The position numbers and the translations under genes were made by a program. Under the pieces are notes generated by a model. The model made no database searches. It was not told the DNA's origin and saw only the letters and a program-made list of their open reading frames with translations. Positions 11,807-64,000 of a stretch of DNA of 64,000 nt are shown here, in pieces. This stretch comes from a virus, in IMG/VR virus record IMGVR_UViG_3300050119_000104, positions 53,460 to 117,459 of that record; one strand, given 5' to 3'. Numbering within the stretch: the stretch's first letter is position 1; the number at the start of each line of letters is the position of its first letter.

Positions 11807-14311
11807 ATGTCTGATATTATCCAAAGAATTTTAATTGAGGGCGGCGGTGAAGCAGGCGCGCAATTCGCTGAACTTGGCGAAACCGGCGTTGAGGCATTCC
11901 AAAAAATTGCGGAGGCGGCCGAAACTGCTGGTGCAGGTCTTACCATTTTCAGCGGCGGCACACTCGCGATCATTGCCGCGATTGCAGCCGTGGTGATCGC
12001 CATCGCTGAATTTGAAAAAGTGCAAGCGGAGGCCGTCGTGTCAACGGCTGCGCTCGGTGAAGCTTTTGGTACTACGGCCGCCGGGGTCCAAGGTTTGCGC
12101 GAAGCATTTGAGGAATTTGGGGTCACAGCCGAAGCCACAAGCCGTGCGATGGCACGCACTGTCCAGGAAATCGATCAAGCGTGGTCTGGTATCCAAGCAT
12201 CCATCCGTAACGCGGGCACCGCACATGAGGCAAGTGCCGAACGAATAGCAGCAGCAGATCAGCGCATTTCAAATGCGGCGAGTGAGTCGGCCGCGAAATC
12301 GGAGGATTGGGCACAGACTATGAAGAAAGACGCGCTCTCGGTCGCCGAGGCGTGGGAAAATCTGAAAAACTCCGCTAGTGATATGGCATCATCGGCGACG
12401 CACGATCTGCAATCGATAGCTGGTGCGTCACTTAGCGTTGAAGAAGCTGAGTTGAAGCTCAAAGAATTCCAAACCGGCCACAAGGATCAAGCGGCCGAGC
12501 ATGCTCTGCAAGGCAGGCGTCTTGAGCAAGGCGTGAAAGACGCGCGACAACATCAGTCGGATGCGAGCGACGCTGCGCTGAAACACATGGAAGATGACCC
12601 GCTGAAACAGGCGAAGGCAAGGCAGGCTTACGACGATGCGCAGAAAAAAATCAGCGACGATAATCGGAAGCAGGCGCAGGAGCAGGCCGATCAATCCCTT
12701 AAAGATAGAGAGCAAGCAACTTCGGCGAAGAAAGCACGCGAGGCTGACTATAATGCCTCCTTAAAAGATTTGGATAACATTCGCGCGGCAATCGAGGGCG
12801 GCGGCGTCGGTGGCGGAATTAATCTCAAGGACGTGAGTCTAGGCGATCTAAAACGCGCGACCATTTATGGCGCGGGAAAAGATCAGGCAGGTGGCGAGAA
12901 ACCTACTGGCGCAGATGTATGGAAAGAGGCTACCGAGAACGTTCGCAAATTCGGCATGAGCGCCAACGAAGCGGCAAAAATCATGGGTTTCGGCGGCCGC
13001 GCTGGAACCATGGATGCTGCTGGGGCAGCGAAAGCACTCAAACAAACAGATATCGGTGGCACGATAGCGGACGCGGATAAGGACAGTTCGAAACTTCAAC
13101 CTTCTAATGTTGCGAACGCGGAAAATATAGTTGGTGCGAGTGCACGAGTTAGCGGTAAATTCAGTGAGATTGCGGCAAAGGTTGCTACCGCCAATACCGG
13201 CCTCGGAGGTTTTACTCAGGCGCTCACCTCCGCAACAACCGCTCTTAAAAATAGCGGCGGTGGCAGCGGCGGTGATTTAACTGAGGCCCCCCTCGGTCAC
13301 GCTAAGGGCGGCATGATCAAGGCGCGCGTGTCCAATGGCGAATTCGTCATGGGGGCTGGAGCAGTAAAGCGTTTCGGTTCTGGTTTCATGCACGCCGTGA
13401 ACGGTGGGCTCGTTCCTCACTTCGCCGAAGGTGGGGATGTAGGCGATGATGGGAACGATCCCGTTAAAGAAGCTCAGAAGGCATCAGATGATCATTACGC
13501 GTCGATGCCACGTGGTTTGCATGGTGCGGCAGCGGAAAAATTTGATCAAGAACAACGGGTGCTCATAGCCAAAGTAAATAGCGCGAGGAAGAAAGCTGCC
13601 CAGGCAGAGATGAAGGCCGATATTCAGCGTGCTGAGGTATGGAACAACAACATGGGCCATCCCTCAATGAGTATCAATGATCCCACGCGGGACATGAACG
13701 ACCCTACTCGGATGGTTCCTTCAAATTATCAGGGTCCTGCTCCTGGTCCAGGCCCTTATTCCTCACCCTACAAAACGTCCGACGCCTCATCGGATACCAG
13801 CACCGCGCCTCAGCAAGTTGCGGACAGCGGTAGATTTGATGTAGCAGAAATGCCCATAATGGGTGTAAAAGGTGCGGACGATGCACGGATGAGTAGTGGA
13901 CCGGAGGGTCAGCCCCCGCCATCACTGCCGTGGGCGGAGTCGGCAGAAGGCGGTGAAATTCACGGCGCGGGCACTGGCACAAGCGATAGTATTCATGCGA
14001 TGCTATCACACGGCGAATTTGTCATGAAAGCGGCGTCGGTGCAAAACTACGGCACTGACTTCATGCACGCAATCAACAATATGGGCTATGCAATGGGCGG
14101 CCCCGTCGTGTCGCCAATTCACATGGCGGCCGGGGGCTCGGCAGGCGGCGGGGGCAGTGGCGGCAGAGGCGGCGGGACACCAATCCATTTGCATCTTGAC
14201 GGCCAGGAATTTGTGACGCACGCGGCGGATCACGTCGCGGCGAGCCTCAAGACACACGCGATCAGTCAACAGACAACTTCAACTGGACGCAAACCAAGCT
14301 GGATGCGCTAA
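11807..14311 (+). CDS. Tape measure protein
   Basis: Long Ala-rich helical protein; duplicated C-terminal GG.I.G.GT.TSDSI.AMLS.GEFVM motif. Confidence 0.85.
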   Translation: MSDIIQRILIEGGGEAGAQFAELGETGVEAFQKIAEAAETAGAGLTIFSGGTLAIIAAIAAVVIAIAEFEKVQAEAVVSTAALGEAFGTTAAGVQGLREAFEEFGVTAEATSRAMARTVQEIDQAWSGIQASIRNAGTAHEASAERIAAADQRISNAASESAAKSEDWAQTMKKDALSVAEAWENLKNSASDMASSATHDLQSIAGASLSVEEAELKLKEFQTGHKDQAAEHALQGRRLEQGVKDARQHQSDASDAALKHMEDDPLKQAKARQAYDDAQKKISDDNRKQAQEQADQSLKDREQATSAKKAREADYNASLKDLDNIRAAIEGGGVGGGINLKDVSLGDLKRATIYGAGKDQAGGEKPTGADVWKEATENVRKFGMSANEAAKIMGFGGRAGTMDAAGAAKALKQTDIGGTIADADKDSSKLQPSNVANAENIVGASARVSGKFSEIAAKVATANTGLGGFTQALTSATTALKNSGGGSGGDLTEAPLGHAKGGMIKARVSNGEFVMGAGAVKRFGSGFMHAVNGGLVPHFAEGGDVGDDGNDPVKEAQKASDDHYASMPRGLHGAAAEKFDQEQRVLIAKVNSARKKAAQAEMKADIQRAEVWNNNMGHPSMSINDPTRDMNDPTRMVPSNYQGPAPGPGPYSSPYKTSDASSDTSTAPQQVADSGRFDVAEMPIMGVKGADDARMSSGPEGQPPPSLPWAESAEGGEIHGAGTGTSDSIHAMLSHGEFVMKAASVQNYGTDFMHAINNMGYAMGGPVVSPIHMAAGGSAGGGGSGGRGGGTPIHLHLDGQEFVTHAADHVAASLKTHAISQQTTSTGRKPSWMR

Positions 14312-31511: not shown

Positions 31512-32729
31512 CTATGCCGCCACTTTGAAGTGTGTTTCATTTTCTTCCTGCTTCACAGAGCGGCGTTTCACGCGGGGCTTTCGCACCGCGCCAGAGCGCT
31601 GTTCTCCACAGGCTGTAACCGCAAAGCTCGCGGCCATCTTCTCAAGATTTCGTGCGGCATTCAGGTCGCGATCATGCGACGCGCCGCAGTCTTCGCAGGT
31701 CCAGGAGCGGACATCTAGGGGCATCGAGTCGTGTATCACGCCGCATTCGGAACAAGTCTTGCTCGACGGATAGAACCGATCAGCGGTAACGATCGTCGCA
31801 CCGTACCATTTCGCCTTGTATTCAAGCATTCGTCGGAACTCACCAAATCCGGCATCGGATATTGAACGCGCCAGATGGCCATTCCGGACCATGCCTTTGA
31901 CATGCAGGTCCTCGATGCCGATCCAGTCGAACTCGTGAACGAGGCGATGTGTCAGCTTGTGGTGGGCGTCGCACCGGACATTGACAATGCGAACGTGTAC
32001 CTTCGCCAGACGCGCCTTGGCTTTCCGCCAATTGACGCTGTGCCGGACCTTCCGGGCGAGCGCCTTGTTGGCGCGCCGGAGCCTCACCAGCGCGTTCTTA
32101 TGGGCCTTGGGGCCGGCGACCATCTCACCAGTCGAGAGTGCCGCCAGCGTCGTCACGCCGAGATCAATGCCGACTACGCGAGGAATTACAGGTCGCTCGA
32201 TCGGCTGGATATCAGTGTCGACCAGGACTGACACGAACCAGCGCCCGGCCGACTTGCTGATCGTTGCGCGCTTGAGTACGCCATCGAAGCGTACAGCCTC
32301 TCGCATCTTGATCCAGCCGATCACCGGCAGCTTGATACGCTTGCCTTCGGCGCGGAATGTCCCGGCTTCATTAGCGGCGCAGAACGAGGGTGTGGCCTTC
32401 GCTCTGCTTTTGAATCTGGGATAGCGGCCGTTGTGAGTGTTCGATTTGAAGTTGCGGAAGGCGATGCCAAGATCAATAATAGCCTCCTGCACGACACACT
32501 TGCCAACTTCACAGGCCCAAGGGAATTTTTCGCGTTTGGTGGCGTTGAACTGCTTCCGCAAACTGATTTCGGAGGGGAACGGCGTGCCGAAGAAGTACCA
32601 GTTTTGAGCCTGCTCTTTCCACGCACCCAGCGCCCAATTGTACGCGAAGCGCGCAGTCCCAGCGGCACGGGCAAGATATAGCTCTTGCTCCGCATTAGGG
32701 TTCAGCGCGACGCGGTGGGCAACTAGCAC
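31512..32729 (-). CDS. tnpB: TnpB RNA-guided nuclease, IS607-type, canonical RuvC D-E-D
   Basis: GIDLG, IGIEDL, SSKTCSECG..C..CG..HDRDLNAARNL motifs. Confidence 0.95.
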   Translation of the reverse strand: MLVAHRVALNPNAEQELYLARAAGTARFAYNWALGAWKEQAQNWYFFGTPFPSEISLRKQFNATKREKFPWACEVGKCVVQEAIIDLGIAFRNFKSNTHNGRYPRFKSRAKATPSFCAANEAGTFRAEGKRIKLPVIGWIKMREAVRFDGVLKRATISKSAGRWFVSVLVDTDIQPIERPVIPRVVGIDLGVTTLAALSTGEMVAGPKAHKNALVRLRRANKALARKVRHSVNWRKAKARLAKVHVRIVNVRCDAHHKLTHRLVHEFDWIGIEDLHVKGMVRNGHLARSISDAGFGEFRRMLEYKAKWYGATIVTADRFYPSSKTCSECGVIHDSMPLDVRSWTCEDCGASHDRDLNAARNLEKMAASFAVTACGEQRSGAVRKPRVKRRSVKQEENETHFKVAA

Positions 32730-38129: not shown

Positions 38130-38771
38130 TCATTTCTTTGCTCGATGTCGAAACGGCAACTTTAGGCCGTCCTGGTTCAGATCGCAAGAAATCTTGCCAA
38201 GCTCTTTGTAACTGATTTTGGTGGGGAGACCACGATGCGGTCCGGGGTAGGTGACGATTGGAAATTTCTTTAGAGTCAGTTTCATGATCTCGCCGTAGTC
38301 GAGCCCGAGAGGGCGACCGTCCTCATCCGGCGTATCCAAGGTGAAAAGCAGAAGCGCCCGCGTGTATTGACGGATATGCTTGTACTCGCGACGCGACAGC
38401 CAGTTCAAACGGTTACTCTCGGCCGGTGTTCGATGTTCTCTAACTTTCTCAGCGGCAATGACCGCCTTATGCTCAGCTTCTTTGGCGCGGTTGGCTGCAA
38501 TAAGTTTTGCTTCTTTGGCGCGCTCGCGGAGCTTCACTTTCTTAGCGCGGAGAGCAATAAGGAGTTTCGCTTTCTTGAGACGGGCAGCAACAAGAAGGGC
38601 TACTTTTTTAGCGCGCTCGTGGAGCTTCGCTTTTGCTTTCGCTTTCTTAGCGCGGAGAGCAGCAAGGAGCTTCGCTTTCTTGAGACGGGAAGCAACAAGA
38701 AACCTCAATCGTTTTGCACGCTTGGCCTCTCGACACTTAAGTCTTTTTACTTGGGAAGTGAGTGATGACAT
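38130..38771 (-). CDS. Lys/Ala/Arg-rich hypothetical protein with an internal repeat
   Basis: Duplicated RLKKAKLL.ALRAKK unit. Confidence 0.5.
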   Translation of the reverse strand: MSSLTSQVKRLKCREAKRAKRLRFLVASRLKKAKLLAALRAKKAKAKAKLHERAKKVALLVAARLKKAKLLIALRAKKVKLRERAKEAKLIAANRAKEAEHKAVIAAEKVREHRTPAESNRLNWLSRREYKHIRQYTRALLLFTLDTPDEDGRPLGLDYGEIMKLTLKKFPIVTYPGPHRGLPTKISYKELGKISCDLNQDGLKLPFRHRAKK

Positions 38772-39215: not shown

Positions 39216-39812
39216 TTATTCGACCGGCGGCTGCTTCCGCTTGCGAGGCCATCCTGGTTCAAAGACAAACTTGTCGGAGACGGGCTTGTTTTCCCGCTTC
39301 GCCGCTTCGCCGACCGCAGTGTAGGGTGGGACGGCATTCGGCATGCGCGCGGTGATCTCTTTGATTTTCTCGTTCATGTCCTCCTGCCATCCGCTCGGTA
39401 GCGGCGGCGGTCGGTCATCCACGAAATTTTTCATGAACATCGCGTCGCGGAGTACCACGAGAGAAGCGAGAGCTTTACCGATGTGGCTGATACCTGAAGC
39501 TGGGTCGATATCCTCGCCCTCGAACCACGCGGTCAGATGGCGCATGGTCGCGTCATAATAGACGCTCGCGCGCACGCCAATGACTCGATAGTTATGCCGT
39601 CCATATTTGCGGGCACCTTCAAACATGCCAACTCCGATCTCGGCAATGACGGCGGATGATACCGTCGAGAACGGCACTTTGAGAATGCCGAGCACGTCTT
39701 TCGGATTGGAAGGTTTCGCAGTTGGATTGTTGGCAACGATTTCCGTATTGAGTACGTCATCGGGATTCGTGCTTATCCGGTTGACACCCACAACCTCTTT
39801 ATCTTGGGTCAT
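39216..39812 (-). CDS. dATP/dGTP diphosphohydrolase-domain (DUF5664-like) protein, N-terminus replaced by the TIR element
   Basis: NPKD..G..K.P, GARKYG..N.R, RHL..W..GEDID..SG..H motifs; the first 15 codons lie inside the element. Confidence 0.75.
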   Translation of the reverse strand: MTQDKEVVGVNRISTNPDDVLNTEIVANNPTAKPSNPKDVLGILKVPFSTVSSAVIAEIGVGMFEGARKYGRHNYRVIGVRASVYYDATMRHLTAWFEGEDIDPASGISHIGKALASLVVLRDAMFMKNFVDDRPPPLPSGWQEDMNEKIKEITARMPNAVPPYTAVGEAAKRENKPVSDKFVFEPGWPRKRKQPPVE

Positions 39813-40903
39813 GCGGCCCTCCGGCTTTCGTCTCCACGACGCTGAGCACTCAGCGCGAGAATGTTCCGTGCGGCATTTGTGTCACGGTCATGGACCGCTC
39901 CGCATCCGCCGCACATCCATTCCCTTATTCCAAGCTCTGCGATACCTTTAGGGCCACAACGCGCACCGCACGTTGAACAGAGTTGGGAAGTCCATCGCTC
40001 ATCGGCCTCAATGTACGTCGCCCCGTGCCTGCTGGCCTTGTAGCGGAGCGCCGACCGGAACGAGGACCAAGAGGCGTCGAGCACGGATTTAGCCATCCGT
40101 GTTCGGGCCATCTGCGCCGCGTTCACATTGCCGACGACGATCAGGCGATTGTCCGCAGCGATGCGGGCCGTCGCCTTATGGATGTGATCTTTCCGGGCAT
40201 TCGCGATCTTGGCATGAATAGCCTTGGTGCGCTTGCGGTTACCGGCGCGCTGCGCCGTGGCAAGTGCCCGTTCGTATTGGCGGTAGTGGCGGAGCGCGGG
40301 GACCGAAGTGCCATCGCTGCACGCCGCAAGGGTTTTCAGCCCCAAATCAATGCCGATTTCGCCGTTGCCTATAGGCAAATCGGCAACATCGACGTGGAAG
40401 CACACGTACCAGCGTCCGCGTGCATCCTCGACGAACGCTCCACCTTTTGCGGTTGGCGGTAATGGCCGTCGCGCTTGCCAGAAATGGTAGACCTTGCCGA
40501 GATAGGTGATCGTGTTGGCTGATACCTGACGGCTCTGACCCTGAAACGGTATCCAGCCCAAAGCGCGCGATCCGCGCCAGCGCAATGAGCGCTTTGCCTT
40601 GTCGCGACTCCGCGCATACTGCTCGCACACCGAGCCGACCGTCTGCGCATGAATGCCCAAGTCCTTCGACGTGCCTTTGGTCATCCGTTGTAGGTCGAAA
40701 TGCGACGGCCATTTGCGCTTCGGCGACCCATCGCGGTAGCGCGCCTCGATGTCATGCTGTACCTCGTTGCAGTAATTCCAGACGACGTTGCACGCTTTCG
40801 CATGCCGCCGAAGGGTCTTTTTGGCGGAGCGGTCCTTGATGCGATAGCGGTAAGTCAAGATCATCTGGGTTTAGTACCTGTGGGTGTCAACCGGATAAGC
40901 ATG
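39768..40903 (-). mobile_element. 1136-bp TIR-bounded tnpB element, copy 1 (IS1595/ISSod11-like ends, no transposase)
   Basis: 25-bp TIR CRTGCTTATCCGGTTGACACCCACA at both ends; identical to the copy at 62885. Confidence 0.9.
39809..40864 (-). CDS. tnpB: TnpB with rearranged RuvC-II (G in place of E; alternative E downstream)
   Basis: IGIDLG; LIVVGNV; ADERWTSQLCSTCG; CGGCG.VHDRDTNAARNI. Confidence 0.92.
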   Translation of the reverse strand: MILTYRYRIKDRSAKKTLRRHAKACNVVWNYCNEVQHDIEARYRDGSPKRKWPSHFDLQRMTKGTSKDLGIHAQTVGSVCEQYARSRDKAKRSLRWRGSRALGWIPFQGQSRQVSANTITYLGKVYHFWQARRPLPPTAKGGAFVEDARGRWYVCFHVDVADLPIGNGEIGIDLGLKTLAACSDGTSVPALRHYRQYERALATAQRAGNRKRTKAIHAKIANARKDHIHKATARIAADNRLIVVGNVNAAQMARTRMAKSVLDASWSSFRSALRYKASRHGATYIEADERWTSQLCSTCGARCGPKGIAELGIREWMCGGCGAVHDRDTNAARNILALSAQRRGDESRRAA

Positions 40904-40965
40904 AACTCAATGAGCTTTTTGATCGGCTTGCGCCGGTGAAGCTCGCTAAGATTAGTCTTTGTCAT
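40904..40965 (-). pseudogene. Orphan N-terminal fragment interrupted by the tnpB element
   Basis: GGGAGG RBS + MTKTNLSELHRRKPIKKLIEF running into the TIR. Confidence 0.5.
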
Positions 40966-41161
40966 ATCCAACAGCCTCCCTATAATGGACACACGTTTCG
41001 TCCGGGGCCCCATGTACCTCTGCGCACGGGCAATCGAGACCCCAGCTACAATGAGCGCCGCGAGCCCCAGCTAGAAGCACGCGCGCAGCCTCAGCTTCGC
41101 GAACGCAAAGCGGGCACGGTTCGGTGCCTTTGGAAAAATCGTGATGGTGGCGGCAGCGCAC
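40952..41161 (-). CDS. Small Cys-rich hypothetical protein
   Basis: Coupled ORF; CPLC and CPC motifs. Confidence 0.45.
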   Translation of the reverse strand: MRCRHHHDFSKGTEPCPLCVREAEAARVLLAGARGAHCSWGLDCPCAEVHGAPDETCVHYREAVGYDKD

Positions 41162-41432
41162 GTCAGGTCTGTGCAGGCGGGAGCATCATTTGCTGGTCGA
41201 TGCGGCGTATGGCCTGAGCCACGCCGGTGCCGCGCGCAAACGCAGCCTCTCCCTCGGCGTATTTCTCTTTGCTGAATTCCAGAGGCTCAGTCATTGGGGG
41301 CTCCCTTTCAAATCCGGGCCGGGCTTCCACCAGCATCATGGATGTACCACTTGCATCCTTCCTTTTCAGGCTAACCACACCTTTACGTCGCAGATGCGCG
41401 AAGCCATCCCGTAGCGGAGCTAGCGCAACCTG

Positions 41433-42278
41433 TCAATAGTCAGGTGACAAACCTAAGTCGTCCGAATTCAGACCCTGGGGCGCACTCACGTCAGCGGGCG
41501 TCGGGCAGCGCGCTCTTGTGGCGCGGATCACTTTGGTCTGCTTCTCGCCGCGATATTCAGAATGTTCTTTAACCGACGCGCGCAGCGTGAACGTTTCGCC
41601 AACTTCGGTTTTGAAAGCGGGCGACATGCAGACGATGGAATTCCCGGCGGCGTCGCGCATGGTCGAAACGTAGACCGTTTGCGCGCGGTCGTAGTAGCCG
41701 AAGCCAGCGCGCTCGAACGTCGAAACACGCTCGACCGTGACCGCGACTTCGATGCGCTTGCCGATCTCACCAACGTGGCCGCTACCGGCGACCGCGACGG
41801 CCCGAGCCTCGCACTTGTCACACGCGGAAATCAGCGTAGCCATCTGCTTTTCGGACAGGTTGCCGGTCCGCGCGACGGTTTCCATAACGCTCGCGATAAA
41901 CGGGTTCTGCTCCGAAAACTTGGCAGCGCGCTCGAACAGCGGACCATTGTCCCGCGTGACGACGGCCCAGCGCTCCGCGCGCTCGGCGGCAATTTTAGCG
42001 ACCTTCACGGCGAGCTTCTCGGCCTTCGCAGCGGCCTTTTTATCAGCGGTCGCGTTCAGCTTTGCGAGTTGCTCGGCGGTGTAGAGCTTATGGCAGACGA
42101 TGGAACCACGGCCGGAACCGCCGCACTGGAAGCAGGTCCAGCCGGTGAACTTCCAGACCTCAGAACCGCCCTGGCCGCCGCAGCGGCCGCAGGGGCTCTC
42201 CTTGGTGATCGAGGGCGCACCCTTGGCGTTGATTTGGGGTGTGCCGGTGAACAGGGGACCAGTTCGGGGCGCGGTCAT
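41433..42278 (-). CDS. Zn-finger (CxxCxG) + OB-fold-like protein
   Basis: CGRCGG/CFQCGG and the C-terminal GHVGEIGKRI...TLRASVKEHSEYRGEKQT motif. Confidence 0.65.
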   Translation of the reverse strand: MTAPRTGPLFTGTPQINAKGAPSITKESPCGRCGGQGGSEVWKFTGWTCFQCGGSGRGSIVCHKLYTAEQLAKLNATADKKAAAKAEKLAVKVAKIAAERAERWAVVTRDNGPLFERAAKFSEQNPFIASVMETVARTGNLSEKQMATLISACDKCEARAVAVAGSGHVGEIGKRIEVAVTVERVSTFERAGFGYYDRAQTVYVSTMRDAAGNSIVCMSPAFKTEVGETFTLRASVKEHSEYRGEKQTKVIRATRARCPTPADVSAPQGLNSDDLGLSPDY

Positions 42279-42354
42279 GGGTTTTTCTCCGCCCTCTACA
42301 TGGCACGGCTCGGGGGAGCCAGCCAGCGGAACCTTGGAAGGAGGTTAAGAGACC

Positions 42355-42595
42355 CATGCTTATCCGGTTGACGCCCAATGCTTGACAGCTACCTGGAATT
42401 TTGCTTTTCTCCGTTCCGACAATCGCCTCCGATTGATTGGGGGTATCTAAAGACCATGTTTCCGTCGTCTGTTCGCGCCGAAAGGTAGAACGGCGATGAA
42501 TAAGGTCCATTTCGGTGGATCGCGCAGAGTGCTCTGCGTCCTGTAGAGGAGAGCCGGGTTCGTGTCGCCCATTGGGCGTCAACCGGATAAGCACG
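42355..42595 (+). mobile_element. 241-bp MITE A (putative omegaRNA cassette), 8-bp TSD AAGAGACC
   Basis: 26-bp TIR; TSD at 42347-42354 and 42596-42603; structured non-coding interior. Confidence 0.9.
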
Positions 42596-43157
42596 AAGAG
42601 ACCGTAAAGGGCTCGCTAGGGCTCAGTTTTCCGCTCCGGTGGGGCATCCATAGCCCAGGAGTGGAAAAACGCGCCAGCGGGCTTCCTCGTGGCTTTGTAG
42701 AGGGTTCTATTCTCCGCATCGGATCGCCATTCCCCCATTGAAGGCATCTTATCGCCCTTAAAGGTGCCCGAGCGGGGCACACGAGGGGGGCATATTCTTT
42801 GCAGCGGAGGTTGCTGAAGCTGTTTTTATGGGAAGGGCGCTAGGGCCGTTACCCTTTGGCGGTATTGCCGCGCAGAATAAGCAGGCGCTGCCATTGCGAT
42901 TCGATCAGGGCGTCGAATTCGACGAGGTTCCCGCATGTCGAGCGCACTAGCCATGCTTCACGCTCCTGCACGTTCGGCCGCTTCCATCCGACGGCTGAAC
43001 GCTTGCGCCTCGAATGCGCGAGCATGCGCCGAGTCATCAATGGGGTGGAATAGCCGCGTGTAGAAGTGCCGACCGTCCGTGGTCGTTATGAACACCTCTG
43101 AGAAGGGGCGATCTTCGCCCCGCCGCTCGATCCGCACCTCCGCGACTTCGGGTGCGC

Positions 43158-43736
43158 TCACGGCTTCCAGCCTGCTTCGATATCGATAGCCGCGTGTAAA
43201 ATAGCTAAGTGAGAGAGTTGAACGAAACCGTATTCGTATGACGGCGTGTAGAAATTCAGATCGCCCATCTTGCGCATTGGATTGTCGCGCTCGAAACCGG
43301 AGAACGTGGCAATGTCCATGCCCTGCGCTCGCGCGTATTCAATCGCGCGAATGATGTTCAGGGATTTGCCCGAGCACGACATCGCGATCAGAATATCGGG
43401 CTCATCGATGCCGAGCAATTCGAGTTGCTTGCTAAACATCGCCTCGACACCGAAGTCGTTGGCGTGCGAGGTGAGCGCGCACGAGTCGTTCAACGCGATG
43501 GCGGGCAAACGCGCCAACGAGAAATCGACGGCGAGATGACTGGCGGAAGCAGCGGCGCCGCCGTTACCGACCAGGATAATTCTACCGCCAGTGTGCAGCT
43601 TTTTGCGGAGATTGAAGACGCCCTGATCGAGTGTCAGCGTCCATCCATCCAGCGCCGGGTATCTCCGGTCTGTGACTTCCGTCAGCGTCGTCGCGAGATA
43701 CGCGGCGCTGATCCAATTTTGTGTGAAGTCGATCAT
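43158..43736 (-). CDS. gmhA: SIS-domain phosphoheptose isomerase-like protein
   Basis: GRIILVGNGG...ASH.A.DF, ND.G...MFS.Q and DILIA.S.SGKS.NI motifs; some canonical residues are altered. Confidence 0.75.
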   Translation of the reverse strand: MIDFTQNWISAAYLATTLTEVTDRRYPALDGWTLTLDQGVFNLRKKLHTGGRIILVGNGGAAASASHLAVDFSLARLPAIALNDSCALTSHANDFGVEAMFSKQLELLGIDEPDILIAMSCSGKSLNIIRAIEYARAQGMDIATFSGFERDNPMRKMGDLNFYTPSYEYGFVQLSHLAILHAAIDIEAGWKP

Positions 43737-43919
43737 CCGTGGTGCTGCTTATTTTTCTTCTTCATAGGAGCATCCCGAGCGCGTGCAAGTAGGTTATAGC
43801 TGGGTACAACGAGGCAAAGGCCGACATTATGAGGAATTTTTAATGGTGCCGCTTCCCTTGTAACAAAGATGGCAAGTTGACCCGCTGAATCCTGGTGGAT
43901 GTGATCTCTAAACTACGCA

Positions 43920-44201
43920 TCATTGGAGTCGTCTCTGCGATCTTTCGCGGTGAGTGGGGGCAACATCTCCCGGCTGACATGAGACAACGAGCCAGTCGCC
44001 CGCGTCGGCCGGTACGAGACCGGGTGTGAATTTTAGTCCCTTGATGTAGCAGACACAGGAGAAAGCATGCAAGGGTTTGATGGTCCGGTCACCATACATA
44101 TCAAACATATTGGTGACCGGCAAAAGACTGCCGTCGAAAGTTACCGTCCAGCGGATATCTTTCGGTACGAAGTTCGGATCGTCCGAGCTAACGCTGACCA
44201 A
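43920..44201 (-). CDS. Hypothetical protein
   Basis: 93 aa ORF coupled to the upstream gene. Confidence 0.4.
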   Translation of the reverse strand: MVSVSSDDPNFVPKDIRWTVTFDGSLLPVTNMFDMYGDRTIKPLHAFSCVCYIKGLKFTPGLVPADAGDWLVVSCQPGDVAPTHRERSQRRLQ

Positions 44202-44202
44202 G

Positions 44203-44913
44203 CTATTGCCTCAACTTGCACGAGGCATTCGTAAAATCGCGCGTTCCACCACCGACGTTTTGTCTCTCGACATAGCGCCATGTATTTTTGTCGGGATCGC
44301 GCATCACATCGCCGGTCAACTTGACTCCAGGGACGTTCGCCCGCGTACCTGACCACTCCCACTGATTGTCATTGATCTTTTTGAGAGCAACATTGTTGTA
44401 CATCTCGAAACGGTCCCACGTGATACCGCCACCGTCCGTTTCAGTGATGGACATATCGCCGTCTCCATCAGTCGAGAACTTGACCGCGAGCATGTTCGCG
44501 CCGTCGCGGCATGATAGGTCGTAGGCCCATTTTTTACTGTTGCTCGGCATCGAACGCACAATCGGGTGACTCAGATCGAGTGTGTTGGGAAAAACTCCCC
44601 AAGTTGGAGCCGACCACAAATCCGGAGTGATGCCACCCCCACTAACACCGCCGCCAGAACCGATGAACGGTTGCACTGTGCTAACTTGCCCAAACGACTG
44701 CGGTATATCCGCCCATGGGCCCCCACCTGCGCCACCGCCGCTGGATATGTTGTTCTTCACATTGATTTGGGCATTCAAAACCGCAGTCGCTGTTGCGGTC
44801 GCCGTGTTCTTATTGATATTGATATTCTTGTTCGTGTTCATGTTCTTCGGAGCGGCGCTTGCCACTGAGATCGTGACCAGGACTCCGATTAAGGCCAAAA
44901 GAATTCGCGTCAT
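44203..44913 (-). CDS. Secreted protein with Asn/Thr-rich repeat
   Basis: Signal peptide MTRILLALIGVLVTISVASA followed by NMNTNKNININKNTATATATA. Confidence 0.6.
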   Translation of the reverse strand: MTRILLALIGVLVTISVASAAPKNMNTNKNININKNTATATATAVLNAQINVKNNISSGGGAGGGPWADIPQSFGQVSTVQPFIGSGGGVSGGGITPDLWSAPTWGVFPNTLDLSHPIVRSMPSNSKKWAYDLSCRDGANMLAVKFSTDGDGDMSITETDGGGITWDRFEMYNNVALKKINDNQWEWSGTRANVPGVKLTGDVMRDPDKNTWRYVERQNVGGGTRDFTNASCKLRQ

Positions 44914-44992
44914 GTTCGTTTACTCTCTATCTGTTTTGGTTTGTCAAAAGGTCGCGCCGCATCCAGGAAAAGATGCGGCGCGTCCTTGACGT

Positions 44993-45223
44993 TTACTGGA
45001 AGTTGCCGACGTGAATGACGGCACCAATGAACGCAGCCGAGGACGAGGTGTCCACGTTCGTGTTCTTGTTGGTGGTCTTGTTCACGTTGGTGTTGGAATT
45101 GGTATTCTTCGAAGTCGTGGAAGCAGAAGCGCTGCTGCCACCCTTCGAGCCGCTCGACGGATGAGCGGTAGCGAGAGTCACGGACGCGAGAAGCGCGGCC
45201 GCTACAATCATGGACTTCTTCAT
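44993..45223 (-). CDS. Small secreted Ser/Asn/Thr-rich protein
   Basis: Signal peptide MKKSMIVAAALLASVTLATA followed by KNTNSNTNVNKTTNKNTNV. Confidence 0.6.
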   Translation of the reverse strand: MKKSMIVAAALLASVTLATAHPSSGSKGGSSASASTTSKNTNSNTNVNKTTNKNTNVDTSSSAAFIGAVIHVGNFQ

Positions 45224-45330
45224 CGATTGTCCTTTCATGGACATTGCGCAGGTACAAATGTTTGCACGTGCATGAACCTCACCTAGCAATTCGAAATTTG
45301 AAGTCAAGCGATCTCTATGGTTACCGAAAA

Positions 45331-45624
45331 TTATTTGACTCGGGCTTTGCCATCAACAATTTTCATCTCTGATCGATGACGGCCAAGCTGGCGAGCGGCG
45401 CGATCCTTCGCGCGTTCCTGTGGCCCCATGCGCGAGCGCTCGACGCCGAGTGGCGTTAACTTTTCGGTACCGGCGTAGAGCACGCCTGAATTTTGTAGGT
45501 GTTGGATAGCTTCTGCACGCGCATTTGGAACGTTCTTCTTTTCCATGATGCCTGTGAGCCGGTCAACCATGCCAGCAGCCCATCGTCCGTGTTCGTCGCG
45601 AAGCTCGTTTGGATTAAACGGCAT
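45331..45624 (-). CDS. Small protein with FNPNELRDEHGRW motif
   Basis: Motif resembles the F(N/D)P.QPRD..GRW unit of phage head-associated proteins. Confidence 0.5.
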   Translation of the reverse strand: MPFNPNELRDEHGRWAAGMVDRLTGIMEKKNVPNARAEAIQHLQNSGVLYAGTEKLTPLGVERSRMGPQERAKDRAARQLGRHRSEMKIVDGKARVK

Positions 45625-46191
45625 CGGGATCACGCTCGCTAAAACGGGAACGACCAGCGATATCGTACGGGGATAAAGCACACCCGTCATCGTGACCGGC
45701 TTTTGACCCCTCGCACGTGCAATAATCTGGACCGCGACTCAGGTGCGGAAAATACTCAGCAGCGCGCAGGTGCTCGTGTTCAAGTCGGACGCCTTCCTCA
45801 AGTCCCGGAGGCTTAGGCACTCCCGGATTTTCAAGCATCCCAACCCATGTCCGCCACAGCGCGGCGTACCAAATATAGACCCCCATCATTGGTCGCTCCA
45901 CTTACCTACAGCATCCACCAACATATTTGGCGGATTGATATCGTAACGACGCGACATATTTGGGGGCCGGTTCGGTCCGAGAATGACTAGAATATCTTCG
46001 CCGCCTATCGTGACCTCGGCATCTTGATCCAAGCCGCGTAGCCGAAGAACTACATCACGGATTTTCATTTGGCTCTCCGGGCAGCTTTCTTCGCAGCGCG
46101 TTTCGCGTCTGTCGCAGCGTTACGTCGGGCGGCACGATAGCTCGCCAGGGGGCGCGGCGTGCCCTGCTTCGGCGTGTAGCCAGGTATCGTT

Positions 46192-46629
46192 TTAATTTTG
46201 AGCGCCATGCAAAGCTTGGTAGTGGTAGTTCCTGGTTTTGTCAATCGGCTTGGTAAGAGCTTCCTCTTTCGGCATCCCCTTGCGAATGCGAGCATGTATC
46301 GTGCTGGGCGAGACCCCGGCCGCTCGGGCACGTTGGTTTACTGTGTCGGTACCGCGTACCGCGCAATTGGACAACGGCCGCGCGATTGCATCCGCTATCG
46401 ATAGTCCTTTCTTGCGCACACGATCAACCGTGCGCTGAACAGGAACCCCCGCAGCGCGAGCTTGCCCTGCAATTGAGTCGAGCCCGCGCCGACGGAATTT
46501 CAGATCGGGCGGGGTTGAAAGTGTCTCAGGCCATGACCAGCCAGCGCGGCGGCGCGCACGCACAGTCCGTGGGTTCAGGCCGTTAGCGCGAGCGAACCCA
46601 GCCATGCTCTTGGGGTCGAAATTAGGCAT
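46192..46629 (-). CDS. Tandem HTH-repeat DNA-binding protein
   Basis: Three ARAAG+...T+..R.RKG...E.AL repeats. Confidence 0.6.
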   Translation of the reverse strand: MPNFDPKSMAGFARANGLNPRTVRARRRAGWSWPETLSTPPDLKFRRRGLDSIAGQARAAGVPVQRTVDRVRKKGLSIADAIARPLSNCAVRGTDTVNQRARAAGVSPSTIHARIRKGMPKEEALTKPIDKTRNYHYQALHGAQN

Positions 46630-46885
46630 CTTGCTCGCTCTTATTATTATGCAGCGGCGGCGGCGGGAGCGGATGCCAATGCGTCGGCTTCGCATGAGGT
46701 TGATACTGCCCGGTCTGTTCACCAAATGCCAGGTCGATGAAATAAGCCCAATCAAACTGACCCCCGCCGACACCAGCACCAAATGGCCCAAGCAGCGATT
46801 CGCCGCGCTTCCCGCGCTCATAATCTTCGCGCTCCCAATCCGTTGAAAACCTTGGCTCGATCTTCTGAGGAATGCGCTTGGCCAT
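46622..46885 (-). CDS. Lar/DUF551-like protein
   Basis: PTHW.PLPPPP C-terminus. Confidence 0.5.
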   Translation of the reverse strand: MAKRIPQKIEPRFSTDWEREDYERGKRGESLLGPFGAGVGGGQFDWAYFIDLAFGEQTGQYQPHAKPTHWHPLPPPPLHNNKSEQDA

Positions 46886-46926
46886 TATTTTAGCTCCCGT
46901 GGGTTCCTTGCATTGGGCATGCTTTA

Positions 46927-48366
46927 TTACACGTCCGTTTGCAAAAGTAAATCGCGGAGGCCGTGTCCAGACACCGAGTCAGCTAATTTAGAGTTTGTAT
47001 CGCAAATTTCCCAATTGCGATCATCTATCGTTCCTGGCGTCGTGATCCGTACCACGGCAACCGAATGACCGCCTTTGACCGTGCCGCGTTCCTCTGCCTG
47101 CGAAACCATCCGGGCGTTGGGAATAGACGAGAAAAATATCACCGCGTCGGCCGCAGAGAAATCGAGTCCTTCGCCGCCCGCATTCGGCGTGCCGAGACAC
47201 TCCATGATCTTTGGCTCATGTAAGAAGCACATTCGATTTATTTCACGTTGCACCATCGGCACGTCGCCGTGGTATTCGACAAATTCGTGACCGCGCGCTT
47301 TCAGCTTCGCAGCGATGCGTCGGATATCCTCTTTATATCGGCACCAGATCAGACATTTCCCCGGCAGCGTGCCGTCTATCTGTTCGATCAGCGCGTCATA
47401 GATCGGCGCATCCTCATCAATAGTGCCGATCACGCCATCCTTCATGAGATAGCCGTTGATGATTTGTTGGAGCTTCTGCACGCGTGCGCCGCCCTCTGAG
47501 GCAGATATTTCCATGTCCCCGATCTCAACGAGGTGATGCGAAACCATTCTCAGATATGCATCACGCTGTAGGGGGCTCATCACGACTGGCCGTTCGGTGC
47601 GGATCAGGTCGGGCATATCATGGATATCCCCACGGAGTACGACGCTCGACCACTTCGCAAGCGCAGTGGTCAGTTCTGGCATATTGAGGTAGCGCTTTAG
47701 TTGCTGGTAGGTCTTGCCGGAGTTGCCGCGCTTCATTGGTACGAATTCAGCGAAGTGCTTCTGGAAATCCTTATAGGTTTCGAAACCGAGCGCCTGCGGG
47801 TGCAGGATTTCGAATTGAGCGAATGCCCGCAGGGGGCTGTTCAAGATCGGCGTGCCCGACTCAATCATCACGTACTTTGCATGAGGTGCAAGACTGCGGG
47901 CGAAATAGGTGCGCTTGCTTCCAGCGTAGCCAAAATGGTGGCCTTCAGAAACGACCAGCATGAATTTACTGTGACACGCTCTCATGAATTGCTTGACCGC
48001 CTTGCGACACGCGAGATGCTTCAACGCTTCCATATTTATAGCGAACCACTTGAAACCGTCACTCTGCAAAAAGTGCATGAAATTTGCAGCATTTTCCATG
48101 CGTTTTGGAGTGGACCAAGCGAACGTCGGATGGTCACCAAGCTCCGGCCAAGCATGGAGCGGAATTTCCCGCTGAACCCAATTAATATGTACGCCGTTCG
48201 GGGCGATGACGATGACGCCTTCGATTGTATTGCGACCGAACTGGTAGCAGGCTTTATCGATGACGGCCTTGGATTTGCCGGAGCGCATCGGCCAGATCAG
48301 ATAGCGCGAGCGCTTGTCCCGCCCTATCGCGAATTCACGAGCCTGATGCTGCCAGTCTTTAGCCAT
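46927..48366 (-). CDS. SNF2/DEAD-like helicase
   Basis: MRSGKSK (motif I), SEGHHF (degenerate DEAH), SGTP and GGEGLDF...Q.EER motifs. Confidence 0.85.
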   Translation of the reverse strand: MAKDWQHQAREFAIGRDKRSRYLIWPMRSGKSKAVIDKACYQFGRNTIEGVIVIAPNGVHINWVQREIPLHAWPELGDHPTFAWSTPKRMENAANFMHFLQSDGFKWFAINMEALKHLACRKAVKQFMRACHSKFMLVVSEGHHFGYAGSKRTYFARSLAPHAKYVMIESGTPILNSPLRAFAQFEILHPQALGFETYKDFQKHFAEFVPMKRGNSGKTYQQLKRYLNMPELTTALAKWSSVVLRGDIHDMPDLIRTERPVVMSPLQRDAYLRMVSHHLVEIGDMEISASEGGARVQKLQQIINGYLMKDGVIGTIDEDAPIYDALIEQIDGTLPGKCLIWCRYKEDIRRIAAKLKARGHEFVEYHGDVPMVQREINRMCFLHEPKIMECLGTPNAGGEGLDFSAADAVIFFSSIPNARMVSQAEERGTVKGGHSVAVVRITTPGTIDDRNWEICDTNSKLADSVSGHGLRDLLLQTDV

Positions 48367-48522
48367 TCATTGCTCGTCATCGAAGTCGAAAATTTCTTCC
48401 GAGATTGGTTCGCGCCACCCGCAAGCATCACATGAGTACGGACCGCATTGCTGTTCGCCGACGCCGATATCATCGGTTTCGCATTCAGCTTCGCTGCCAC
48501 ACCGAGGACATTTCATCTTCAT
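48367..48522 (-). CDS. Small Zn-ribbon protein
   Basis: MKMKCPRCG...CDACGW; AGGAG RBS. Confidence 0.5.
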   Translation of the reverse strand: MKMKCPRCGSEAECETDDIGVGEQQCGPYSCDACGWREPISEEIFDFDDEQ

Positions 48523-48558
48523 GGCTTATTCTCCTGGCCACTTCATTACTTTATGTTT

Positions 48559-48799
48559 CGTGCTTATCCGGTTGACGCCCAATGGGCGACACGAACCCGG
48601 CTCTCCTCTACAGGACGCAGAGCACTCTGCGCGATCCACCGAAATGGACCTTATTCATCGCCGTTCTACCTTTCGGCGCGAACAGACGACGGAAACATGG
48701 TCTTTAGATACCCCCAATCAATCGGAGGCGATTGTCGGAATGGAGAAAAGCAAAATTCCAGGTGGCTGTCAAGCATTGGGCATCAACCGGATAAGCATG
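48559..48799 (-). mobile_element. 241-bp MITE B (putative omegaRNA cassette), 8-bp TSD TTATGTTT
   Basis: Inverted near-identical copy of MITE A (about 3 substitutions); TSD at 48551-48558 and 48800-48807. Confidence 0.9.
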
Positions 48800-48990
48800 T
48801 TATGTTTGAGAAAATCACCAATTCGAGCGGCGACTGTGCAGTTGGCTTTATCAATGCCGTATGTGGTGCAATGTTCGCCACCGCCGCAATTTCCGACCTT
48901 TCGACCTATAATGATAATCTGATCATAGCCGTATTTCTCAGCTACTGCTTTTGCCGCACTGATTGGGATTGGTCTCATCTCACTCTCCAC
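48769..48990 (-). pseudogene. Small phage gene interrupted near its 3' end by MITE B
   Basis: Removing the element and one TSD restores ...DFLKHKVMKWPGE*. Confidence 0.7.
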
Positions 48991-49300
48991 GATAACGGGA
49001 ATTCCGTTCCTTCAAGCGCTCACGCTCGCGCTCTCTGTTCCGGTTTAGCTCGACTTCTTCGCGAGCTATGTCGGCGCAACCAGGGCAGAAATGCTCCCAC
49101 GGCTGACCCTGCGGCTTGAGCGTGATCCAGCCAAGCTCCTGCGCTCCTTTCCAAGTTACTACGAAGCTAGGTTCATGATTTTCCAGACGCTCGAATTGCG
49201 CTGGGCAAGCGTCGCATTCGAAAATGAGCGTGTTCTTATCGGGTCTATCAAAGCCCATTACTGCTTTCCTTCCGTGAGCGTGAACCGCCCATGCATCCAC
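48980..49300 (-). CDS. Hypothetical Zn-binding protein
   Basis: ECDAC...FCPGC motifs. Confidence 0.5.
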   Translation of the reverse strand: MDAWAVHAHGRKAVMGFDRPDKNTLIFECDACPAQFERLENHEPSFVVTWKGAQELGWITLKPQGQPWEHFCPGCADIAREEVELNRNRERERERLKERNSRYRGE

Positions 49301-57982: not shown

Positions 57983-58067
57983 CGTGCTTATCCGGCTGAC
58001 GCCCAATGGACGACACGAACGGAAGAAAAGCAAAATTTCAGGTAGCTGTCAAGGTAGGTGTCAACCG
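57983..58067 (-). mobile_element. Decayed MITE C (internal deletion, one end truncated)
   Basis: CGTGCTTATCCGGCTGACGCCCAATG joined to GAAAAGCAAAATTTCAGGTAGCTGTCAAG, both from the MITE sequence. Confidence 0.8.
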
Positions 58068-62410: not shown

Positions 62411-62433
62411 GTTGCTATCTCCTGTCCGAGAAC

Positions 62434-62508
62434 CGCGCAGAGTGCTCTGCGTCCTGTAAAGGAGAGCCGGGTTCGTGTCGCCCATTGGGCGTCAACCGGA
62501 TAAGCACG
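62434..62508 (+). mobile_element. Half MITE D (omegaRNA core hairpins + right TIR)
   Basis: CGCGCAGAGTGCTCTGCGTCCTGTAAAGGAGAGCCGG...GTCAACCGGATAAGCACG. Confidence 0.85.
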
Positions 62509-62884: not shown

Positions 62885-64000
62885 CGTGCTTATCCGGTTG
62901 ACACCCACAACCTCTTTATCTTGGGTCATGCGGCCCTCCGGCTTTCGTCTCCACGACGCTGAGCACTCAGCGCGAGAATGTTCCGTGCGGCATTTGTGTC
63001 ACGGTCATGGACCGCTCCGCATCCGCCGCACATCCATTCCCTTATTCCAAGCTCTGCGATACCTTTAGGGCCACAACGCGCACCGCACGTTGAACAGAGT
63101 TGGGAAGTCCATCGCTCATCGGCCTCAATGTACGTCGCCCCGTGCCTGCTGGCCTTGTAGCGGAGCGCCGACCGGAACGAGGACCAAGAGGCGTCGAGCA
63201 CGGATTTAGCCATCCGTGTTCGGGCCATCTGCGCCGCGTTCACATTGCCGACGACGATCAGGCGATTGTCCGCAGCGATGCGGGCCGTCGCCTTATGGAT
63301 GTGATCTTTCCGGGCATTCGCGATCTTGGCATGAATAGCCTTGGTGCGCTTGCGGTTACCGGCGCGCTGCGCCGTGGCAAGTGCCCGTTCGTATTGGCGG
63401 TAGTGGCGGAGCGCGGGGACCGAAGTGCCATCGCTGCACGCCGCAAGGGTTTTCAGCCCCAAATCAATGCCGATTTCGCCGTTGCCTATAGGCAAATCGG
63501 CAACATCGACGTGGAAGCACACGTACCAGCGTCCGCGTGCATCCTCGACGAACGCTCCACCTTTTGCGGTTGGCGGTAATGGCCGTCGCGCTTGCCAGAA
63601 ATGGTAGACCTTGCCGAGATAGGTGATCGTGTTGGCTGATACCTGACGGCTCTGACCCTGAAACGGTATCCAGCCCAAAGCGCGCGATCCGCGCCAGCGC
63701 AATGAGCGCTTTGCCTTGTCGCGACTCCGCGCATACTGCTCGCACACCGAGCCGACCGTCTGCGCATGAATGCCCAAGTCCTTCGACGTGCCTTTGGTCA
63801 TCCGTTGTAGGTCGAAATGCGACGGCCATTTGCGCTTCGGCGACCCATCGCGGTAGCGCGCCTCGATGTCATGCTGTACCTCGTTGCAGTAATTCCAGAC
63901 GACGTTGCACGCTTTCGCATGCCGCCGAAGGGTCTTTTTGGCGGAGCGGTCCTTGATGCGATAGCGGTAAGTCAAGATCATCTGGGTTTAGTACCTGTGG
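62885..64000 (-). mobile_element. TIR-bounded tnpB element, copy 2 (runs off the window edge)
   Basis: Identical to 39768-40883 at an offset of 23117 bp. Confidence 0.9.
62926..63981 (-). CDS. tnpB: TnpB with rearranged RuvC-II, identical to copy 1
   Basis: Translation identical to 39809-40864. Confidence 0.92.
   Translation of the reverse strand: MILTYRYRIKDRSAKKTLRRHAKACNVVWNYCNEVQHDIEARYRDGSPKRKWPSHFDLQRMTKGTSKDLGIHAQTVGSVCEQYARSRDKAKRSLRWRGSRALGWIPFQGQSRQVSANTITYLGKVYHFWQARRPLPPTAKGGAFVEDARGRWYVCFHVDVADLPIGNGEIGIDLGLKTLAACSDGTSVPALRHYRQYERALATAQRAGNRKRTKAIHAKIANARKDHIHKATARIAADNRLIVVGNVNAAQMARTRMAKSVLDASWSSFRSALRYKASRHGATYIEADERWTSQLCSTCGARCGPKGIAELGIREWMCGGCGAVHDRDTNAARNILALSAQRRGDESRRAA

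Follow-up and report, generated by a model that had tools for sequence, protein, structure and literature searches.

Protein-less derivatives of IS200/IS605 transposons known as PATEs carry omegaRNAs that would need TnpB to be supplied in trans by other elements (PMC10055086, Meers et al. 2023). TnpB is also found together with transposases of the DDE type, and for these branches the text of PMC10691335 (Altae-Tran et al. 2023) describes tnpB genes that lie inside inverted repeats with their 3′ ends near the transposon end, as well as solo tnpB copies that have the same ends as transposase-bearing copies. The families named for DDE-linked TnpB are IS630, ISL2, and IS1031, and the rarity of the association is discussed in a 2026 review (PMC13565253), which also describes the capture of Fanzor1 by eukaryotic DDE transposons, with inverted repeats and duplications. 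In the omegaRNA of ISDra2 the bases at −5 to −3 pair with those at −103 to −105, and a 116-nt scaffold suffices for cleavage (PMC10097598, Nakagawa et al. 2023).

The stretch of DNA we analyzed (64,000 nucleotides; the window) forms the final 64 kb of one viral contig of 117,459 bp, which recurs in peat metagenomes and whose genes include those for a portal protein, an exonuclease, and a helicase. Positions given below are those of the window unless they are marked as genome positions. Within the 117 kb of the contig there is a MITE family of 11 copies and two fragments. The original prediction, which held that two 241-bp MITEs of the window look like stand-alone omegaRNA expression cassettes, had pointed to these two elements, to a CTTGACA motif within them, and to three hairpins, and each of these features is present at the exact coordinates. 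MITE A (42355..42595, plus strand) is a 241-bp non-coding element with the ends CATGCTTATCCGG...CCGGATAAGCACG, and MITE B (48559..48799, minus strand) is 99% identical to it; the two share the start CATGCTTATCCGGTTGAC and the terminus GTCAACCGGATAAGCACG. The 24-nt motif of the inverted ends occurs seven times in the window against zero expected. As had been stated, no tnpB frame lies upstream of the omegaRNA-like part of the element, since the frame is interrupted by a TAA at 42501-42503, and the sole open reading frames in the MITE are context-dependent overlaps.

Exact 8-bp target-site duplications (TSDs) of unrelated sequence flank five of the 11 MITE copies, and six copies are without one. 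The TSD of MITE A is AAGAGACC (left copy 42347..42354, right copy 42596-42603), and that of MITE B is AAACATAA, which reads TTATGTTT on the plus strand (48551-48558 and 48800-48807). The left terminal inverted repeat of MITE A (42355..42380, plus strand) has its first 15-19 nt in common with a 2250-bp IS1595-family element located elsewhere on the contig (genome 8172-10421; ends CATGCTTATCCGGTT...), whose 15-19 terminal nt are identical to the MITE ends and which is bounded by an 8-bp TSD of its own. This element encodes a 347-aa protein (genome 8212-9255) that contains a Zn-ribbon (PF12760, 1e-11) and a DDE_Tnp_IS1595 domain (PF12762, 1e-34). IS1595 elements are the bacterial kin of Merlin, and 8 bp is the usual TSD length of their members (PMC8101967). 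Other viral contigs hold elements of 252-1960 bp with the same ends, eleven of them with an exact 8-bp TSD, and a tnpB element with these ends and the TSD TCTGATAT is found on one such contig (L086). A soil contig (L058) further carries a 2.6-kb element bounded by one pair of these ends, and inside them lie the RNA module, a tnpB with a frameshift, and an IS1595 transposase that is 66% identical to that of the phage. The combination of 24-nt inverted repeats, exact 8-bp TSDs, and unrelated targets means that the 241-bp elements belong neither to IS200/IS605 (PATE) nor to IS607, and the features by which PATEs are recognized (no inverted ends, no TSD, subterminal hairpins, and insertion 3′ of a fixed TAM) are together not those seen here. 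Judged by their sequence, the 241-bp elements are MITEs of a DDE, inverted-repeat, TSD-making lineage with tnpB as a passenger, and the shared ends and TSDs suggest that the IS1595 transposase mobilizes them in trans.

We note several further features of the insertions. One MITE (L001:15472-15706, TSD GAAGGCTT) is inserted at the left tip of a tnpB element (genome 15708-16846) and disrupts the left repeat of that element. Two other copies (genome 13769-14021 and 18974-19208) have flanks that are inverted rather than direct (CAAAGCG / CGCTTTG and GATGACAGA / TCTGTCATC, respectively), as expected of intramolecular transposition with inversion. At a distance of 5 nt from the element, the left flanks of MITE B (48800-48818) and of the genome-13769 copy (13750-13768) both contain ATTTTCTCAAA, which may recur in the phage as a motif and serve as a preferred target. 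An 8-mer near the right end of the tnpB element, ATCCCGAT, is the reverse of the TSD of the IS1595 element, a match that we ascribe to chance because the flanks are not paralogous. Finally, three viral contigs (L169, L184, and L187) have in common ...GCTGAGTGCTACGGGCAAACTAGGGTCGACCTACAACCGGATAAGCACG followed by an identical flank, and the copy of the right-end motif there is fixed and possibly domesticated.

The tnpB-only element of the window (39768..40903, minus strand) is 1136 bp long, has the same inverted ends as the MITEs, and contains a tnpB coding sequence at 39809-40864 with an omegaRNA module at its 3′ end. A second, identical element (62885..64000, minus strand; tnpB at 62926-63981) is truncated by the end of the contig, and a third (genome 15708-16846; tnpB of TnpB2 at genome 15747-16805) has the same ends and is 57% identical. 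Neither of the two complete TnpB1-type elements (39768-40903, that is T93224, and L176:654-1789) has a TSD, which may reflect the exchange of flanks by recombination between copies or intramolecular events. The solo right end of a MITE (62425..62508, plus strand) retains stems A and B, the closing helix, and the terminal repeat described below, and an 85-bp remnant with an internal deletion (57983..58067, minus strand) joins a MITE right end to the promoter-like stretch and is without the omegaRNA stems. The phage is unusually rich in transposons, which make up ~6% of the 117 kb, and its contig contains five tnpB copies of four types. Two other tnpB genes (31512-32729, minus strand, and genome 46199-47302, minus strand, which is L003:6199-7302 (−)) encode proteins of 405 and 367 aa, respectively, that have the Pfam OrfB_IS605 and Cas12f1-like TNB domains, and these genes are without IS1595-type ends. 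Repeats of other kinds are also present in the window: two direct repeats 849 nt apart (96% identity over 300 nt) lie in GGN-rich, collagen-like coding sequence at 32-1293 and are probably duplicated modules of the tail-fibre type, and an 85-nt direct repeat pair with 82% identity and a spacing of 105 nt lies at 38533-38722.

We derived the structure of the tnpB-linked RNA from an alignment of 16 tnpB-linked right ends, each taken over its final 150 nt and none of them from a MITE, the tnpB relatives being drawn from metagenome and viral contigs. Five helices are strongly supported by the alignment: helices C and D, which lie in the 3′ end of the coding sequence, stems A and B, and a closing helix (CCGG/CCGG) that surrounds a variable hairpin. 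In the 16 sequences, 95.3% of the cells are paired and 10 pairs show double changes; none of 500 shuffles matched this, and slid partners reached at most 42% pairing. In addition, a pseudoknot joins GUGCU, in the loop of stem A, to AGCAC at positions −6 to −2 from the element end; 98.8% of its cells are paired, against at most 56% for slid controls, and three of its five pairs are compensatory (in L008, L097, and L103). From the covariation of the pseudoknot it follows that the scaffold ends at the tip of the transposon, which places the flank in the position of the guide. Moreover, both the 3′ strand of the pseudoknot and the closing helix draw on the outer part of the right repeat, so that this repeat is a transposase site and the 3′ end of an RNA scaffold at once. 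The TnpB relatives are invariant in the catalytic D, E, and D residues and in the CxxC pairs. In the HDRDxNA(A/S) codons (39860-39885 and equivalents), changes at the third position of the Arg codon are matched by changes at the first position of the Ala/Ser codon (CCGCG/CGCGG and CCGAG/CUCGG), so the RNA stem appears to constrain the choice of amino acid in TnpB. A search of 39600-49000 against Rfam 15 at a permissive threshold returned no omegaRNA family, the sole match being to ar7 at chance level. Among genome contigs, relatives of the TnpB were found at one MAG locus, and 200 further genomes of the family of that MAG contained none at a strict threshold (E <=1e-40). The plasmid and phage collections held distant tnpB matches only and no MITE matches.

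The right half of the MITE corresponds to the 3′ part of this RNA. A 38-nt block of MITE A (42520-42557) was said to be identical at 32 of 38 positions to the 3′ end of tnpB, with four of the six differences falling into two compensatory pairs, and this is borne out: the counterpart is 39821-39858 on the minus strand, and the pairs are GCUGA/UCAGC versus GCAGA/UCUGC and UCGU/ACGA versus UCCU/AGGA. In MITE A, all on the plus strand, stem A (GCGCAGA-GUGC-UCUGCG) occupies 42522..42538, with the loop GUGCU at 42529-42533 as the 5′ strand of the pseudoknot, and stem B (UCCU-GUAG-AGGA) occupies 42539..42550. The closing helix (42554..42586) pairs CCGG at 42554-42557 with CCGG at 42583-42586, the latter inside the right inverted repeat, and encloses a variable hairpin, and the 3′ strand of the pseudoknot, AGCAC, lies at 42590..42594, which is −6 to −2 from the element end. 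A covariance model on homologues had been proposed as a check. Our model, which was built from the tnpB-linked right ends and contained no MITE, matched all of the MITE copies with 50-56 bits (E 2e-13 to 2e-15, or ~1e-14), and MITE A with 56.5 bits (E 2e-15 in 117.5 kb). In the alignment of the model with the MITE, stems A and B, the closing helix, and the tail are matched at high posterior, and stems C and D, which lie upstream in the tnpB-linked RNA, have no detectable counterpart in the MITE. The solo fragment at 62425-62508 scores 51.5 bits, near to a full MITE, consistent with a match made only by stems A and B, the closing helix, and the tail. By analogy with ISDra2, whatever lies 5′ of the pseudoknot strand may not be required. 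The module of the MITE is identical to no module of the tnpB genes on the contig. Taken together, these findings lend good support to the view that the MITE, a mobile element that encodes no protein, carries an omegaRNA core by itself and has its flank in the position of the guide. The original prediction is thus borne out in part, for this core; a self-promoted transcript, the use of TnpB in trans, and a working repertoire of guides are putative, and the lack of a TAM rule (see below) weighs against them.

Between the left repeat and the hairpins the MITE contains a promoter-like stretch, CTTGACA-N14-TGc-TTTTCT (42381..42410, plus strand; CTTGACA at 42381-42387), that is near-invariant in all of the MITE subfamilies and absent from the left ends of the tnpB elements. 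It has a perfect −35 and a TG, and its −10 (TTTTCT) is poor. A scan of 42300-42700 for sigma-70 promoters and terminators found nothing, and the assignment of a promoter at CTTGACA therefore fails by the standard sigma-70 scan. Contigs assembled from metatranscriptomes of three studies cover 42374-42595, although these are low-depth assemblies of a high-copy repeat in which DNA carry-over is possible. Two contigs from the RNA libraries go beyond the right end. The first enters the flank of the copy at genome 32011-32252 (CAACAAAGGACG...) for 83 nt, and the second continues for 115 nt in a flank that was traced to no copy in the 117-kb contig. One RNA-library contig begins at 42374, upstream of any start predicted from the promoter-like stretch. 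The unique flanks of MITE A were found in no contig of three RNA-library runs (Logan contigs, which cannot show absence). Given the low depth, the high copy number of the repeat, the strandless contigs, and the possible carry-over of DNA, we take the RNA-library contigs as a weak hint of transcription of the MITEs and nothing stronger.

Upstream of the core the MITE has hairpins of its own (42418..42521, plus strand), namely a CAAUCG hairpin (CAATCG/CGATTG at 42420-42435), a long stem with a GAAA loop (~42463-42497), and a UUCG-type hairpin (42504-42521), and this 5′ half folds as a chain of hairpins (z −2.85). These features, together with the core, bear on whether the module could be a non-functional leftover of the internal deletion that formed the MITE and persist only through recent amplification. 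Within the main subfamily the identity of most copies is 93-99%, as would be expected after recent amplification, and conservation there is for this reason of little weight. The lack of a convincing promoter, the lack of a TAM-like motif (see below), the loss of the upstream omegaRNA stems, and the decay of the family evident in the 85-bp remnant and the solo right end also fit with a relic. On the other hand, two diverged subfamilies (genome 6528-6768, ~73% identical, and L185, on a related viral contig) can be compared with the first, and stems A and B are base-for-base identical in all three while the surrounding sequence has diverged. The UUCG-type hairpin takes the forms GGUCCA/UGGAUC, GGUUCC/GGAGCC, and GGUCCGC/GCGGAUC in the three subfamilies, and at the base of the long stem CGUCG.../...CGGCG is replaced by CAUGACC/GGUCAUG; it is thus suggestive, with three lineages only to compare, that the three other hairpins have been kept through compensatory changes. 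The promoter-like stretch, which is equally invariant, does not come from the left end of the tnpB element. We accordingly regard a relic as improbable. The string of stems A and B in the MITE was found in one other viral contig only.

The hairpins might instead act at the level of DNA, as binding sites for the transposase or as single-strand DNA signals that transposition requires. The inner repeat motif does recur in inverted form at the right end (GTCGCCCATTGGGCGTC), in the manner of subterminal binding sites. However, at least eight mobile elements with the same ends and with TSDs, and the IS1595 element itself, are entirely without stems A and B and give no match to the covariance model, which means that the module is neither needed nor kept for transposition. 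Furthermore, G-U pairs are tolerated in the stems, and the same structure is present in the coding 3′ end of tnpB in relatives for which no left repeat was found, where the right-end motif likewise lies 3′ of tnpB. A role in DNA is for these reasons very hard to credit.

If the MITE RNA reads through the right end, the bases that follow would occupy the guide position. For MITE A, a putative 16-nt guide (42596..42611, plus strand) would consist of the right TSD and 8 nt of flank, and the flank sequences quoted in the original prediction as the guides of A and B match the DNA. That prediction held further that every insertion creates a new guide. A TAM would sit just 5′ of the target, which in the empty site means the bases before the duplicated 8 bp. 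At seven insertions the 4-5 nt 5′ of the TSD (AAGCT, AAATG, TGATA, GTATC, AGGTT, TTCTC, and TTATG) show no shared TAM-like motif, and so a TAM-dependent TnpB could not cut most of the empty sites. Without such a motif 5′ of the 8-bp TSDs, the statement that each insertion makes a new guide is true of the RNA sequence and goes no further. Either TnpB follows a very relaxed rule, or usable guides come from some of the insertions only, or the RNAs have another purpose. The 16-nt flank guides have no meaningful second match within 3 mismatches in the contig, and the reconstructed empty sites of MITEs A and B have no exact match in viral contigs. A 27-35 nt match downstream of the portal gene was considered as a guide and rejected: the sequence there (L003:2868-2900, genome 42868-42900; GGAGGGCCGCATGACCCAAGATAAAGGGG), 33 nt between the portal gene and a gene for a 921-aa protein, consists of the last codons of tnpB and ~20 nt of downstream element interior, is without a terminal repeat, and is probably a fragment of the interior of an element.

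One way to accommodate the random targets is to suppose that the MITE makes a structured RNA that has no working guides and serves another role, for example as a decoy that sequesters TnpB and thereby spares the phage or its host from cleavage, or as a regulator of the IS1595 transposase. The core of the scaffold is conserved and yet no TAM logic fits random 8-bp targets, the 5′ half is both specific to the MITE and conserved, and the guides lack a second match in the contig. Nothing specific favors a role of this kind, however; the pseudoknot and the end of the scaffold are placed as in working omegaRNAs (PMC10097598), and the RNA-library contigs extend into the flank. We therefore think it unlikely. 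A bolder proposal is that the MITE is a phage-borne, DDE-mobilized guide-RNA gene with which a TnpB of relaxed or unconventional TAM cuts MITE-free alleles in co-infecting relatives. We hold this to be rather doubtful. Were it true, the outcome would be homing or exclusion between phages and not repair of the excision site, and the terminal repeat of an IS1595 transposon would have been co-opted as the pseudoknot and closing helix of an omegaRNA, its bases serving transposase and nuclease alike. MITEs with nothing but this RNA would then spread in the phage genome, and a further guide would be written wherever one inserts.

In our judgment the MITEs are probably non-autonomous elements of the IS1595 lineage that keep an omegaRNA core and provide extra guides in trans for the TnpB proteins of the phage. 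In this scheme a MITE would have originated from the two ends of a tnpB-bearing element, and the IS1595 transposase encoded elsewhere on the contig would move it by way of the 24-nt inverted ends, with an 8-bp TSD made at each insertion. The MITE retains stems A and B, the pseudoknot that the loop of stem A forms with the final six bases of the element, and a closing helix to which the right repeat contributes CCGG. Transcription would start from the internal promoter-like stretch, and a transcript reading through the right end would be the omegaRNA, its guide being the duplicated 8 bp and the next bases of the flank. Binding by TnpB and cleavage would follow, and the most likely role of such extra guides in trans would be to mark MITE loci against MITE-free alleles. 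The homing by restoration that is proposed for IS200/IS605 does not transfer to this case, because excision by a DDE transposase already leaves a break and random 8-bp targets lack a fixed TAM (PMC13565253). What TnpB does inside DDE transposons is a question that this locus could address, as a compact natural system: the transposase is found on one contig with two variants of tnpB and a dozen guide cassettes that stand alone and have defined flanks. The terminal repeat is under a double constraint, from protein binding and from the RNA pseudoknot, and MITE RNAs, should they prove to work with TnpB, would be natural guides that are separately encoded and programmed by transposition.

How these elements relate to the systems described previously can be summarized as follows. 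PATEs and the 241-bp MITEs are alike in being protein-less miniature derivatives of TnpB transposons that keep a guide-RNA gene. PATEs are moved as single strands by the Y1 HUH transposase TnpA, have neither inverted ends nor TSDs, and insert beside a fixed TAM, whereas the 241-bp MITEs have 24-nt inverted repeats, 8-bp TSDs of unrelated sequence, and a DDE transposase as their partner. With the DDE-associated branches, as the text of PMC10691335 presents them, the elements of the contig share the placement of tnpB in inverted repeats and the solo copies with shared ends. IS1595 is not among the families that PMC13565253 names for them, and the text of PMC10691335 describes neither omegaRNA-bearing MITEs nor a terminal repeat that serves as a pseudoknot strand. 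Our literature search, which covered the main text of PMC10691335, found nothing that joins TnpB and IS1595 in one element, and it found no description of omegaRNA-bearing MITEs of a DDE transposon. Like the RNA of the contig, the ISDra2 omegaRNA forms a pseudoknot between the bases preceding the guide and a distant upstream segment, and its scaffold overlaps the 3′ end of tnpB. The two have no sequence similarity, and the RNA of the contig has no Rfam match; its core, from stem A to the tip, is ~75-95 nt long, and its 3′ strand is the terminal repeat of a DDE transposon, unlike that of ISDra2. Fanzor1, compared here by way of the review only, also places a TnpB-family nuclease and its guide RNA inside a cut-and-paste transposon, and the case reported here differs in being prokaryotic, phage-borne, and of the IS1595 family. 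Protein-less omegaRNA derivatives, in the form of PATEs, and DDE-linked TnpBs are thus already known, and the linkage to IS1595 and the MITEs of a DDE transposon described here are a variant of them.
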